Source: Bdellovibrionota bacterium FG-1 (GTDB lineage: Bacteria; Bdellovibrionota; UBA1018). From it: DNA of 64,000 bases. Location: assembly GCA_051382295.1 (NCBI GenBank), contig JBBCAW010000005.1, positions 32,001-96,000 on the forward strand, written 5' to 3'. This document shows, piece after piece, positions 25,436 to 32,115 of the stretch. Each line of letters starts with the position of its first letter. The first letter of the stretch is position 1. The notes beneath the pieces are model-generated. The model saw only the letters and a list, made by a program, of their open reading frames with translations, was not told where the DNA came from and searched no databases. The position numbers and the translations under genes were made by a program.

Positions 25436-25508
25436 TGGAGACGCACGGGATCGAACCGAGGACCTCATCCATGCCATGGATGCGCTCTACCAACTGAGCT
25501 ACATCCCC
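25436..25508 (-). tRNA. tRNA-Ala(GGC)
   Basis: 73-nt cloverleaf, anticodon arm CATCC-ATGGCAT-GGATG, G3:U70 pair, TTCGA loop; CCA not encoded. Confidence 0.95.
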
Positions 25509-27449: not shown

Positions 27450-27890
27450 TTAAGCCGCCATTCGCTTTTGAGAACCCAGGTGCCAGTCTACGATTAGTTT
27501 TTCTGGAGTCTTGGAACTTTCCGAAAGGTCAGAAAATTTGATGGGAATGATCAAAGCCAACGCCTCAGCGACGAAACCACGAATTGCATACTCGTTGATC
27601 TGAGAAAGGCGCTTCTTCTTTTCACGCTCCCATCGCAGGATGGTGCCACTGGTAAGTCCAAGTTTTCCGGCAAATTTTTCCATAGAAAGATCTAAGGTCT
27701 TTCTTAAGAATTCCACCTCCTGGCCGCGAAGCGGTACATGCTGGTTTAAAATTTCGGCAGCGATCAGGCGCTCGACTTCCCCTAACTTTGCAGTGACAAT
27801 CGCTCCTAGTTCCTTGCTGGTTCTTACCGGGAGATTCTTAACCTCAACATATTCTAGGCCACCATACTGTTTAAAGTTCGTCGTTTTCAT
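27450..27890 (-). CDS. XRE-HTH protein, probable MqsA-like antitoxin
   Basis: EVEFLRKTLDLSMEKFAGKLGLTSGTILRWE; ATGA overlap with the upstream gene. Confidence 0.75.
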   Translation of the reverse strand: MKTTNFKQYGGLEYVEVKNLPVRTSKELGAIVTAKLGEVERLIAAEILNQHVPLRGQEVEFLRKTLDLSMEKFAGKLGLTSGTILRWEREKKKRLSQINEYAIRGFVAEALALIIPIKFSDLSESSKTPEKLIVDWHLGSQKRMAA

Positions 27891-28183
27891 TGTCCGGCCT
27901 TTTCTTTTTTAGTGAGGTGCCTTCGCATGACCGTAACGATCACGACGGCTCCTTCAATTTTGCATGAAAGTGCGGCCCCTTTTTTATTCGTATCGTAGCC
28001 AGCGACAAAATAAGTTTTTTTATCATCCTGCCATCGAAATGCCACACAGGTCTTTCCTATACTTGCCAAATCAGCTCGGACAAGTTTTCGGTTAATCATC
28101 TGTTGGAAGCCATGCGTGGTGACCTGAATCTCGTCGTTGATCAAGGCTTCGATAATGATCTTCTTGTCCGCCGTTGTAACCAT
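27887..28183 (-). CDS. DUF4258-like putative toxin
   Basis: TTHGFQQMINRK and IVTVM motifs; small, basic, paired with an HTH gene. Confidence 0.65.
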   Translation of the reverse strand: MVTTADKKIIIEALINDEIQVTTHGFQQMINRKLVRADLASIGKTCVAFRWQDDKKTYFVAGYDTNKKGAALSCKIEGAVVIVTVMRRHLTKKEKAGQ

Positions 28184-29867: not shown

Positions 29868-29925
29868 TAAGTCAAGTAATAATCGGCAGCTTGTTTTCTA
29901 TAGCATTGATTTAAAAGGCAAAATT

Positions 29926-30026
29926 AGGAATTCTCGGCGAGGGTGTCGGGGACGGCCATCCAGGCCTCGGCCGCTCTTGTCGCATCCATGCGACGCGGAC
30001 GCCCCTCACCTCGCCGCAGAATTCCT
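29926..30026. repeat. Branched palindromic element (REP/MITE-like)
   Basis: Outer stem AGGAATTCT-CGGCGAG / CTCGCCG-c-AGAATTCCT with inner CATCCA-containing hairpins. Confidence 0.65.
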
Positions 30027-30299
30027 CGCGCCCGCCTGCGGCGAAGGAGCCCTTGCGGCATAAATACCTCACCTTTCGAGGCAAAGGGGTGGGCCGCTTC
30101 GGGCGCTTTTATTGGCTGGGCGGGCTTGCGAGTGGGATGATTAGGCAACCGCATCCCTTAGTTCGCTCCTGGATCGGAAACTTTTTTTCCGGGGTCTTCT
30201 TCTTGAAAGGCTGAGAGCTGATAGCTGACAACTCTAAATGAACCAAATCGGACAGCTCCCATCCATGAGAACACCGGTTGCGCTGCACCCGGAGCCTCC

Positions 30300-30452
30300 T
30301 CATTGATGATCTAGATAGAACAGAACCAACTTGGCTAAAAACCACAAAAACTGGGATAGAATTTTTTGAGTCCCTATTTTTTGCTTTAGTTTTTTAAGCC
30401 ATCGACGAAAAGAATAGTGTTCGGCCTTGCGACCGTTCTTCTTGTTTTTCAT
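30300..30452 (-). CDS. 50-aa cationic amphipathic peptide, copy 1
   Basis: AAAGGAGGT RBS; MKNKKNGRKAEHYSFRRWLKKLKQKIGTQKILSQFLWFLAKLVLFYLDHQ. Confidence 0.8.
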   Translation of the reverse strand: MKNKKNGRKAEHYSFRRWLKKLKQKIGTQKILSQFLWFLAKLVLFYLDHQ

Positions 30453-30523
30453 CGGGGTTACCTCCTTTCTTGTGAAAAGGGGGTAGCTCCATCTTTCCTG
30501 TCCGATTTGGCAGGGACCCATTG

Positions 30524-30540
30524 AGCAACTTCAGTGCCAG
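30524..30540 (-). promoter_or_regulatory. Sigma-54 promoter, unit 1
   Basis: CTGGCAC-TGAAG-TTGCT. Confidence 0.85.
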
Positions 30541-30728
30541 CGTTATCGCGATTTTCTCGATGTTTTTGCTGGAGTTTGGTTCGATACGCGGTGAGTGCGG
30601 CTGAAAGTCGGATCAGTGAATTGCAGTCTTCTTCAAAAGCTGAGTGCTAAGCGCTGATGGCTCTAAAAAAACCAAACCGGACAGCTCCCATCCATGAGAA
30701 CTCCAGTTGCGCTGCACCCCGAGCCTCC

Positions 30729-30881
30729 TCATTGATGATCTAGATAGAACAGAACCAACTTGGCTAAAAACCACAAAAACTGGGATAGAATTTTTTGAGT
30801 CCCTATTTTTTGCTTTAGTTTTTTAAGCCATCGACGAAAAGAATAATGTTCGGCCTTGCGACCGTTCTTCTTGTTCTTCAT
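30729..30881 (-). CDS. 50-aa cationic amphipathic peptide, copy 2
   Basis: Same protein as copy 1 with two synonymous changes. Confidence 0.8.
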   Translation of the reverse strand: MKNKKNGRKAEHYSFRRWLKKLKQKIGTQKILSQFLWFLAKLVLFYLDHQ

Positions 30882-30952
30882 CGGGGTTACCTCCTTTCTC
30901 ATTAAAAGGGGGTAGCTCCATCTTTCCTGTCCGATTTGGCAGGGACCCATAG

Positions 30953-30969
30953 AGCAAGGTTGGTGCCAG
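30953..30969 (-). promoter_or_regulatory. Sigma-54 promoter, unit 2
   Basis: CTGGCAC-CAACC-TTGCT. Confidence 0.85.
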
Positions 30970-31170
30970 ATTTATGTGCAACTTCCGGGGGTTTTTGCCT
31001 GGGGGTTGGTTCGATACGCGGTGGGATGGTCGAAAATCGGATCAAATGCTGAAGTGATCTTCTTCTTCGAAGGCTGAGAGCTAAGCGCTGATAGCTGATT
31101 GCTCTAGAAAAACCAAATCGGACAGCTCCCATCCATGAGAACTCCGGTTGCGCTGCACCCAGAGCACTCC

Positions 31171-31326
31171 TCACGGCTGTCTTAGATAGTAGGATATTGC
31201 ATCGGCTAGAATCACTAAAACCTTGGCTAAGACGTAGAGTCGCCAAGATTTCAATTTAAGTTTTTCCAGCCGAATCCGAGACGAATAATGTTCGTTGGTC
31301 TTACGACCAATTTGTTTATTCTTCAT
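31171..31326 (-). CDS. 51-aa cationic amphipathic peptide, copy 3 (divergent)
   Basis: AAAGGAGGT RBS; MKNKQIGRKTNEHYSSRIRLEKLKLKSWRLYVLAKVLVILADAISYYLRQP. Confidence 0.8.
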   Translation of the reverse strand: MKNKQIGRKTNEHYSSRIRLEKLKLKSWRLYVLAKVLVILADAISYYLRQP

Positions 31327-31397
31327 CGGGGTTACCTCCTTTCTTGTTAAAAGGGGGTAGCTCCATCTTTCCTGTCCGATTTGGCAGCGACCCATCG

Positions 31398-31414
31398 AGC
31401 AAAGTTGGTGCCAG
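31398..31414 (-). promoter_or_regulatory. Sigma-54 promoter, unit 3
   Basis: CTGGCAC-CAACT-TTGCT. Confidence 0.85.
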
Positions 31415-31570
31415 GTTTATGTGCAACTTCCTGGGGTTTTTGCTGGAGTTTGGTTCGATACCCGATGAGGATGGCCGAAAATCGGATCAGTGATGGGGTG
31501 AATAGGACAGAAAGCCGGGATGGCGTGTGGGTGTATTCTGAGTGGCATGGGCCCGCAAGCTCTGGTCGTT

Positions 31571-31676
31571 GAGCAGTATCTACTGCCGCGCGGAGGCAGC
31601 TCGTGGCGTTCACCCCGACCTCGGCGCAGTGTACTGCCGCGCGGAGGCAGCTCGTGGCACTCACTCCGAGCTGCTC
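31571..31676. repeat. REP-like doublet
   Basis: TACTGCCGCGCGGAGGCAGCTCGTGGC at 31581 and 31632, enclosed by GAGCAG/CTGCTC. Confidence 0.8.
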
Positions 31677-31737: not shown

Positions 31738-32115
31738 ATGGCAGCTCAAGTGGCCCCAAAAAGTGGCGAATTTCTGGATGGTAAGCTTTGGTTCGAGCGT
31801 AAGGGTAAGACCGTGACGCTTGGCATCACTAGTTTCGCCGTAGAGGAAGTCGGCGAGGTTCAGAGTATTGAATTTCCGGATGAGGGCACCGATTTTGTCA
31901 AAGGCGACACCGTGCTCACGGTTGAAGGCGCCAACGGAAAGCTCGAAGTCATTGCTCCGGCAACAGGGATTATTCAAGAGGTGAACGAAGCCGCTCGTGC
32001 GGAGCCGGACATGGTTTCGGATGATCCTCTCGAGGAAGGTTGGCTCATTAAACTTGAAATCGAAGACACCTCGGATCTCTCAGAGTTCCAAGCCGAAGAA
32101 GACGAAGAAAGCTGA
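31738..32115 (+). CDS. Glycine cleavage H-protein-like, lipoyl Lys absent
   Basis: TLGIT.FA.E.VG, APATG.I.EVN, DPLEEGWL; VEGAN in place of VESVK. Confidence 0.85.
   Translation: MAAQVAPKSGEFLDGKLWFERKGKTVTLGITSFAVEEVGEVQSIEFPDEGTDFVKGDTVLTVEGANGKLEVIAPATGIIQEVNEAARAEPDMVSDDPLEEGWLIKLEIEDTSDLSEFQAEEDEES

Follow-up and report, generated by a model that had tools for sequence, protein, structure and literature searches.

A dispersed gene unit in Bdellovibrionota that probably encodes a type I toxin-antitoxin module with predicted sigma54 and sigma28 promoters

Three tandem units in the window

We analysed 64,000 nucleotides of contig JBBCAW010000005.1 from Bdellovibrionota bacterium FG-1 (positions 32,001 to 96,000), referred to here as the window. 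The window contains three tandem units of 429-445 bp each on the minus strand, flanked by a 504-aa open reading frame (ORF) and gcvH. The features of the units are as follows (coordinates in the window, strand, description).

30579-30613, minus: unit 1 upstream dyad at -100, a predicted site for an enhancer-binding protein, with two imperfect palindromes of the GTCCG-N5-CGGAC kind 20 bp apart
30524-30539, minus: unit 1 predicted sigma54 (-24/-12) promoter; predicted +1 at about 30513
30498-30511, minus: unit 1 end helix, 5' arm (inverted repeat, RNAfold, alignment)
30488-30492, minus: unit 1 ANGGA segment, which pairs with ORF or pre-AUG bases in folds
30458-30486, minus: unit 1 hairpin sequestering the Shine-Dalgarno sequence (SD): anti-SD, loop CACAA, SD at 30460-30469 (fold and alignment)
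30300-30452, minus: unit 1 ORF, 50 aa, net charge +11, C-terminal half hydrophobic (P0001)
30385-30411, plus: unit 1 predicted sigma28 antisense promoter, within the ORF (P = 0.20 against a synonymous-recoding null)
30418-30498, plus: unit 1 predicted antisense RNA, about 75-95 nt with inferred ends, two hairpins, covering the first codons, AUG and SD
30282-30290, minus: unit 1 conserved 3' UTR motif GGGURCAGC, about 50 nt before the 3' end (alignment)
30242-30255, minus: unit 1 end helix, 3' arm (inverted repeat, RNAfold, alignment)
31009-31042, minus: unit 2 upstream dyad
30953-30968, minus: unit 2 predicted sigma54 promoter; predicted +1 at about 30942
30671-30942, minus: unit 2 predicted mRNA, with arms at 30927-30940 and 30671-30684
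30887-30915, minus: unit 2 SD hairpin
30729-30881, minus: unit 2 ORF, encoding a peptide identical to that of unit 1
30711-30719, minus: unit 2 GGGURCAGC motif
30814-30840, plus: unit 2 predicted sigma28 antisense promoter (P = 0.22, synonymous-recoding null)
31453-31487, minus: unit 3 upstream dyad
31398-31413, minus: unit 3 predicted sigma54 promoter; predicted +1 at about 31387
31112-31387, minus: unit 3 predicted mRNA, with arms at 31372-31385 and 31112-31125
31332-31360, minus: unit 3 SD hairpin
31171-31326, minus: unit 3 ORF, 51 aa, charge +9 (P0002)
31152-31160, minus: unit 3 GGGURCAGC motif
31256-31282, plus: unit 3 predicted sigma28 antisense promoter (P = 0.03, synonymous null)

A first-pass annotation of this DNA had described each unit as the gene for a peptide mRNA whose ends pair and whose ribosome-binding site lies in a hairpin. 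Its coordinates were correct for all three units. The 13-bp inverted repeats are perfect in unit 1 (30243-30255 and 30498-30510) and unit 3 (31113-31125 and 31372-31384). The arms of unit 2 (30672-30684 and 30927-30939) match at 12 of 13 positions, and the lone change is, as had been proposed, a U-G pair on the minus-strand RNA. The end helix of the window units extends to 14 pairs, of which the terminal pair is G-U. The start had been predicted 3 nt before CCAAA, and this is supported by the perfect sigma54 site in each unit. The SD hairpin formed by TACCCCCTTTT and GAAAGGAGGTA is present with the loops that had been reported (CACAA, AATGA and AACAA); the two segments pair at 10 of 11 positions, with one C-A mismatch that had gone unmentioned. 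In RNAfold, the check that had been suggested, both helices formed in units 1, 2 and 3, and the full predicted transcripts folded far better than their own shuffles (z = -5.6, -4.7 and -8.0). The U-rich tail said to follow the 3' arm is clear in units 2 and 3 but weak in unit 1. It is not general: only 40 of 81 family members had at least five T within 8 nt. In the 4.44-Mb genome, perfect inverted repeats of at least 13 bp with a spacer of 200-300 nt were found 8 times inside units and 12 times outside them.

The window contains other repeats near the units. A separate GC-rich repeat of about 200 bp (29925-30132) has 7 other full or partial copies in the genome, one of them about 1.3 kb from another unit, on contig C3. 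Two 41-nt copies with a 51-bp period and a palindromic core lie at 31581-31672, with look-alikes on several contigs. Short GCTGA-type repeats, with a small hairpin, lie just downstream of each 3' arm (30195-30233, 30624-30662 and 31058-31096); these are found in the window copies and at C62:4.7 kb and are not family-wide. At 27450-28183 on the minus strand, a 98-aa DUF4258-like ORF (E = 0.009) lies beside a 146-aa HTH ORF (E = 0.0006). This pair, 2 kb from the units, looks, if only weakly, like a type II toxin-antitoxin pair, and a tRNA gene (25436-25508) is near it.

A family of units found in one order of Bdellovibrionota

An iterated profile search of the genome gave 30 matches (28 at E < 1e-10) in 19 clusters. 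Of the copies, 26 have a promoter and a start codon, and 25 have an intact ORF of 43-53 aa. The genome also contains one copy with an internal deletion and two fragments. The peptide profile matched 26 of 127 genomes of the class. In the phylum it matched 22 of 401 genomes, every one in the order to which the window belongs (a few of the weakest matches are possibly spurious). Presence is patchy, with the family found in 17 of 74 genomes of the taxonomic family at 1 to 26 copies per genome. The named records with relatives were metagenome-assembled genomes (MAGs) of Bdellovibrionota (18 loci), and one carrier MAG is from a lineage assigned to UBA1018, which has been called potentially predatory (PMC13200544). 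A search of 1.84 billion protein representatives gave 82 matching clusters, nearly all of 31-83 aa.

Copies clustered by genome on a tree (30 label changes, compared to 56 in shuffles), indicating local expansion. Several copies are broken by internal deletions, lost 5' or 3' halves or early stops (L023 at G000 C9:1414-1835, L038, L059, L124, L127 and L137), indicating turnover of the modules. DUF4423 genes adjoin or separate units at three clusters (L167:47-844, L169:16-894 and L025:2878-3684). Near four clusters there are HEPN, PIN, weak Phd, HipA and two nucleotidyltransferase genes, among 17 neighbours picked by eye and not blind.

We found no relevant match to Pfam or NCBIfam for 24 family members, no PDB chain at E up to 10 for the family peptides, no match in PADLOC and no convincing PHROG family. 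Rfam gave only one tRNA in the window and sub-threshold chance matches over the units. None of 34 pattern matches on viral contigs was confirmed as a relative. In the Atlas, unnamed clusters were at 0.88-0.90 (recognition 1959), which is weak evidence.

For comparisons between copies, 107 relative loci gave 79 distinct ORFs that passed, and with the 25 copies from the genome itself there were 104 rows. We removed 14 of these because of their length, a contig end, a missing end or poorly paired arms, then a further 3 for weak pairing and 4 that were misregistered, leaving 83 sequences. The end-anchored alignment, A4, contains 68 of 87 rows; near-duplicates, rows with long inserts and misregistered rows were left out.

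The family peptides are 38-53 aa (median 45), with a net charge of +3 to +14 and a hydrophobic C-terminal half. They are small hydrophobic proteins of less than 60 aa, a trait of type I toxins. All 82 peptides pass the 10-in-15 hydrophobic criterion of Fozo, and in 73 of the 82 the best 19-mer has a hydropathy of at least 1.6. The hydrophobic segment of the peptide of units 1 and 2 is weak (best 19-mer 1.29). A structure model contained one helix, from residue 5 to 49 (pLDDT 76.7, pTM 0.37).

The mRNA ends are predicted to pair, and a local hairpin to hold the SD

We found that three helices are conserved as RNA pairs. In A4 (68 rows), 98.0% of cells in the 14-pair end helix were paired, with two-sided change at 12 of the 14 pairs. 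The SD hairpin was 85.3% paired with 6 of 10 pairs compensated, and a helix internal to the ORF was 85.0% paired with 5 of 9 pairs compensated. None of 500 shuffles reached any of these helix measures, and controls in which the partner was slid were 42-60% paired. These pairing figures are conditional on a choice of rows made partly by arm pairing (from 104 to 83), and the copies are kin; kinship among the rows of A4 can inflate its statistics of compensatory change. A tree from which the arms were excluded showed up to 20 and 21 changes at single arm positions on the two sides, and the positions remained paired in 78-83 of the 83 sequences. At pairs 2-14 of the end helix there were 56 G-U pairs, compared to 18 unpaired cells, and therefore the constraint is on the minus-strand RNA and not on repeats in the DNA. 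Judged from these comparisons, the RNA architecture is real and strongly selected.

Folding predicted SD sequestration in all three window units. In these models, the SD is held by the local hairpin, independent of the end helix, and both loops are exposed in the predicted full-length fold. The motif GGGURCAGC in the 3' UTR was exact in 63 of 83 sequences, with near matches in the rest; a search among the copies for a pseudoknot or a consistent pairing partner of this motif found none. The ANGGA segment was found in 74 of 83 leaders. We take it to resemble a CsrA site, and csrA is present in the genome.

Predicted sigma54 promoters with an upstream dyad

There are three perfect sigma54 sites in the window, one in each unit, with 0.05 expected. 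All 25 of the 25 intact copies in the genome have a GG and a TTGC-type box, with the motif lying 13-15 nt ahead of the arm. Among relatives, the -12 box was kept in 54 of 62 copies and the -24 GG in 41 of 53. The -24 GG is normally near-invariant at sigma54 promoters, and it was missing from 12 of these 53. At L121, L122, L139, L052, L116, L119 and L120, for example, the -12 box is kept and AG or other bases replace the -24 GG. Such promoters could be weakened copies, or RpoN could be relaxed. The genome and all 23 of 23 carriers have rpoN.

The best match to the dyad started at -99 to -101 in 20 of 26 copies in the genome. In relatives its position was scattered, and clear matches at -90 to -105 were found in only part of the 57. 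Genome-wide, the combination of dyad and sigma54 site occurs only at the units, except for three weak matches. We had considered an activator shared with the flagellar genes, and this confinement leaves that idea unsupported. The genome encodes about 25 full-length sigma54-activator domains. Three near-identical ORFs of about 324 aa (G000 C18:6583-7557, C141:21682-22656 and C106:14078-15052) have a strong internal match to the dyad and are perhaps a mobile element.

A sigma54-type site precedes a flgF-like gene, making a sigma54-to-sigma28 order of flagellar expression plausible here. At L161:209-237, ahead of a flgF-like gene, a sigma54-type site overlaps a sigma28-like site, the latter identified by eye. 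RpoN is not mentioned in the available text of PMC5430801.

A predicted sigma28 promoter on the opposite strand, within the ORF

We found a feature that the first-pass annotation had missed: a predicted sigma28 (FliA-type) promoter within the ORF, on the opposite strand. The sigma28 consensus that we used is close to the FliA motif of Bdellovibrio, given as TTAAG-N16-CCGATA (PMC3627812). A site of this kind is also present at three flagellin genes in the genome. The best antisense match fell over the codons x-R-x4-K-L-K in 26 of 26 copies in the genome, with 11-13 of 16 matches, and the site was in one frame, over the same codons, in 84 of 87 copies. Just ahead of the Arg, the codon ended in T in 84 of 84, across 8 different amino acids. 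The Arg was CGG in 73 of 83, compared to a genome usage of 19%, and the Leu was CTN in 76 of 77.

The score of the site was above the mean of synonymous recodings in 25 of 25 copies in the genome (12.3 compared to 10.2). Taken one by one against the synonymous-recoding null, only 13 of the 25 sites had P < 0.05; units 1 and 2 of the window were above 0.05. We also used a matrix trained on 94 upstream sites outside the units and seeded with a known sigma28-like pattern. By this matrix, 25 of 25 sites in the genome and 51 of 58 in relatives were above the 95th percentile of 4079 ORF starts (17 and 37 were above the 99th), compared to 16 of 83 for the sense strand. Upstream of genes, a 15-nt spacing occurred 23 times and a 16-nt spacing 24 times; shuffles gave 3.8 for the 15-nt form. 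Scores for fliA were above its cut-off both in this genome and in 21 of the 23 carriers.

The -35 bases of the site fall in the ORF helix (85% paired), and in folds the -10 bases are paired close to the start codon. Since the sigma28 bases are shared with RNA helices, part of their conservation may be due to pairing; the peptide may also account for part of it. A scan for a sigma70 antisense promoter gave 2 sites with 1.3 expected, and that candidate was set aside. Unit 3 (its ORF, including 31183-31212) contains two additional promoter-like matches: the sense strand matches the sigma28 pattern at 12 of 16 positions, and the plus strand has a weak resemblance to a sigma70 site. Both are probably due to chance.

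The predicted antisense RNA starts about 35 nt inside the ORF. It would be about 80 nt, form two hairpins, cover the first codons, the AUG and the SD, and end in a weak U-tail. We compared divergence in 18 pairs of paralogs. The SD loop differed at 25.7% of positions and the start of the ORF covered by the antisense RNA at 14.7%, compared to 6.2% elsewhere in the ORF and 2.8% elsewhere in the leader. There were 20 distinct SD loops in 25 copies. This pattern is as expected if the loops set antisense specificity, by analogy with what is reported for IsoA (PMC5416894). Relaxed constraint on the loops would yield a similar pattern.

Interpretation and alternatives

The arrangement of these features suggests that each unit is probably a type I toxin-antitoxin module of a new family, with a predicted sigma54-dependent mRNA and a predicted sigma28-dependent antisense RNA. 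An enhancer-binding protein at the -100 dyad would fire the predicted sigma54 promoter to make an mRNA of about 270 nt. Its ends would pair, its ribosome site would be kept in the local hairpin, and the closed mRNA would be stable and untranslated. With the SD hairpin still folded, loss of the 3' arm would free about 22 nt next to it, at the 5' end, to serve as a standby site for ribosomes. The predicted sigma28 promoter inside the peptide gene would make the antisense RNA of about 80 nt that silences the mRNA. This RNA would bind through the loop of the SD hairpin and a loop early in the ORF, each copy recognizing mainly its own partner, and binding would block initiation and offer a duplex to RNase III. 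Once sigma28 transcription stopped, the antisense RNA would decay, and the cationic peptide would be made and enter the inner membrane. The predicted sigma54/sigma28 wiring would be a distinctive and testable feature of the family.

It is possible, and we propose it tentatively, that the modules form a life-cycle switch in which sigma54 stocks the cell with locked mRNAs and the antidote, made under FliA, the attack-phase sigma factor, is available only in the swimming predator. Shut-down of FliA, whether through contact with prey, a failure of flagellar assembly or takeover by a phage, would release up to 26 different cationic membrane peptides together, and these would arrest the cell or act on prey. 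If so, the flagellar hierarchy that runs from sigma54 to sigma28 would have a type I system wired into it.

A different role for the peptides is rather unlikely. They might be phase-timed membrane peptides for predation or development and not self-toxins, held back in the sigma28 swimming phase by the same RNA control, that act on prey membranes or in attachment or exit. In favour of this role, FliA is reported to control two thirds of the mapped attack-phase promoters in Bdellovibrio (PMC3627812), and the lineage has been called potentially predatory (PMC13200544). The peptides are highly positive with a long helix of amphipathic appearance, and many other sigma54 sites in the genome precede proteins of secreted appearance, as judged by reading their N-termini. 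However, copy-specific loops suit independent addiction modules better than a co-regulated arsenal. The patchy presence (17 of 74 genomes), the range of 1 to 26 copies and the several broken copies also argue against such a role, as does the location of copies between unrelated genes, some of them beside type II toxin-antitoxin genes. Next to the window copies there is neither a cleavable signal nor a dedicated exporter.

We return to the type I module and to how its mRNA might be activated. The first-pass annotation had called the transcript a translationally locked toxin mRNA. For a putative toxin this fits: both helices are conserved as RNA pairs, the peptide resembles a type I toxin, and there is a predicted antisense promoter. 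The part that equilibrium folding does not support is the implied release of the SD by 3' processing, as in hok and aapA. Nearest-neighbour folding of this kind takes no account of pseudoknots, kinetics or proteins. By this method, opening the SD cost on average 11.5 kcal/mol in the full-length RNA and 12.4 and 11.7 kcal/mol after 3' cuts of 16 and 35 nt (43 of 83 sequences). With eight 3' cuts (16-60 nt) and three 5' cuts, a drop of over 3 kcal in this cost was seen in no more than 2 of 27 sequences. In contrast to its effect on the SD, removal of the 3' arm in silico freed the 5' 22 nt, with the cost falling from 18.7 to 8.4 kcal/mol. Because the SD is trapped locally and a 3' cut frees these 22 nt, we favour, on the folding models and by analogy with tisB, a standby-type route of activation.

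The stricter version now seems unlikely. In it, closure of the SD would depend on the end helix, and trimming at the 3' end would refold the leader so that the SD is exposed, as happens in hok and aapA. The end helix is strongly selected, and folding of this kind is blind to pseudoknots and kinetics. There is also a potential alternative partner for the anti-SD: an SD-like purine run just past the stop codon is the best one in most copies and lies in the 3' UTR in 79 of 81, with a pairing energy of -9.5 kcal/mol compared to -12.1 kcal/mol for the SD. However, cutting the RNA at either end left the SD closed in silico, and this run is unchanged, by eye, when the anti-SD goes from ACCUCC to ACCCCC. 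Furthermore, the anti-SD is local, unlike aSD3 of aapA3, which is described as lying in the 3' end (PMC6733600).

It is very unlikely that the unit is a structured non-coding RNA or a selfish repeat with an incidental ORF. The whole transcript folds far better than shuffles, and the nearly invariant GGGURCAGC motif has no known partner, both of which fit that idea. However, there is a strong SD at a fixed spacing, and indels keep the frame. In 780 codons of the C-terminal part, there were 131 changes at third positions compared to 96 and 62 at the other positions, and 31 pairs had 96 synonymous and 122 non-synonymous changes in that part. The 82 protein clusters are mostly of similar length. 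A miniature DNA transposon (MITE) with the 13-bp arms as its terminal inverted repeats is hardly credible: such repeats and many dispersed copies are present, but homology continues 100 nt past the 5' arm, through promoter and dyad, G-U changes in the arms are tolerated on just one strand, and the arms differ between subfamilies.

Comparison with known systems

Type I systems are described in a 2025 paper as found only in Proteobacteria, Firmicutes, Tenericutes and, newly, cyanobacteria (PMC12390103). In the literature that we covered, which mostly excluded subscription papers, we found no type I system for Bdellovibrionota and none with sigma54 and sigma28 promoters. Bdellovibrio is not mentioned in the main text of T1TAdb (PMC8594479) or in that of Fozo 2010 (PMC2887945), whose supplements carry further predicted candidates. 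Neither RpoN nor FliA appears in the available text of a 2025 review on how toxin-antitoxin systems are regulated (PMC11951105).

In layout, the units resemble AapA/IsoA of Helicobacter pylori, which is described as having several chromosomal copies and an mRNA of about 250 nt with 5'-3' pairing (PMC5416894, PMC8594479, PMC8309996). Both have an antisense promoter inside the ORF and an antisense RNA with two stem-loops over the translation start, features that are predicted here. Both peptides have a basic N-terminus and a hydrophobic helix. The loop sequence is reported to set the specificity of IsoA (PMC5416894), and loops diverge fastest here.

There are also differences. The units match no library entry, which would mean no homology to AapA/IsoA provided that the libraries include these. 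The peptides are 38-53 aa, compared to 30 aa for AapA. AapA1 needs K29-R30, whereas only 44 of 82 peptides here have K or R within the last three residues. In aapA3, the SD is reported to be trapped by the 3' end (PMC6733600), whereas here it would be trapped in a stable local hairpin, which in silico stays closed after 3' cutting. The full-length aapA mRNA is inert, whereas both loops are exposed in the full-length fold here. The promoters here are predicted to be of the sigma54 type with a dyad and of the sigma28 type. Because there is no sequence homology and no 3' anti-SD, we have not placed the family under aapA/IsoA despite the similar layout.

The units resemble hok/Sok and ldr/Rdl in having an end-paired, presumably inert mRNA and a fully overlapped antisense RNA, and resemble ldr in having tandem copies within one intergenic region. 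In hok/Sok and ldr/Rdl, however, the antisense RNA is described as 5' of the toxin ORF (PMC8594479), whereas here it would start inside the ORF, and there is no sequence match. In tisB/IstR-1, the SD stem-loop is reported to persist while processing exposes an upstream standby site (PMC13000454), which is the route that we infer here. In contrast to these units, tisB is processed at the 5' end and controlled by LexA, and its antitoxin gene does not overlap it. TisB is the nearest named cluster in the Atlas, at only 0.77, a weak lead.

For the pairing of sigma factors, the closest likeness is in Campylobacter, where CjNC1/CjNC4 and CJnc170 (FlmR) are described as sigma28-dependent sRNAs that target 5' UTRs of sigma54-dependent mRNAs (PMC4626219, PMC11187230). 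Those sRNAs act in trans on flagellar genes, whereas the RNA predicted here would be encoded in cis, inside its toxin-like target. The role of chromosomal type I modules, and when they lose their antitoxin, is a standing question. Here the predicted promoters themselves point to a trigger, the loss of FliA activity, which is testable in E. coli or Bdellovibrio. The activation route looks unlike that of aapA, and the family provides more than 80 naturally varied copies in which the peptide, the RNA fold and a predicted promoter are written in the same bases.
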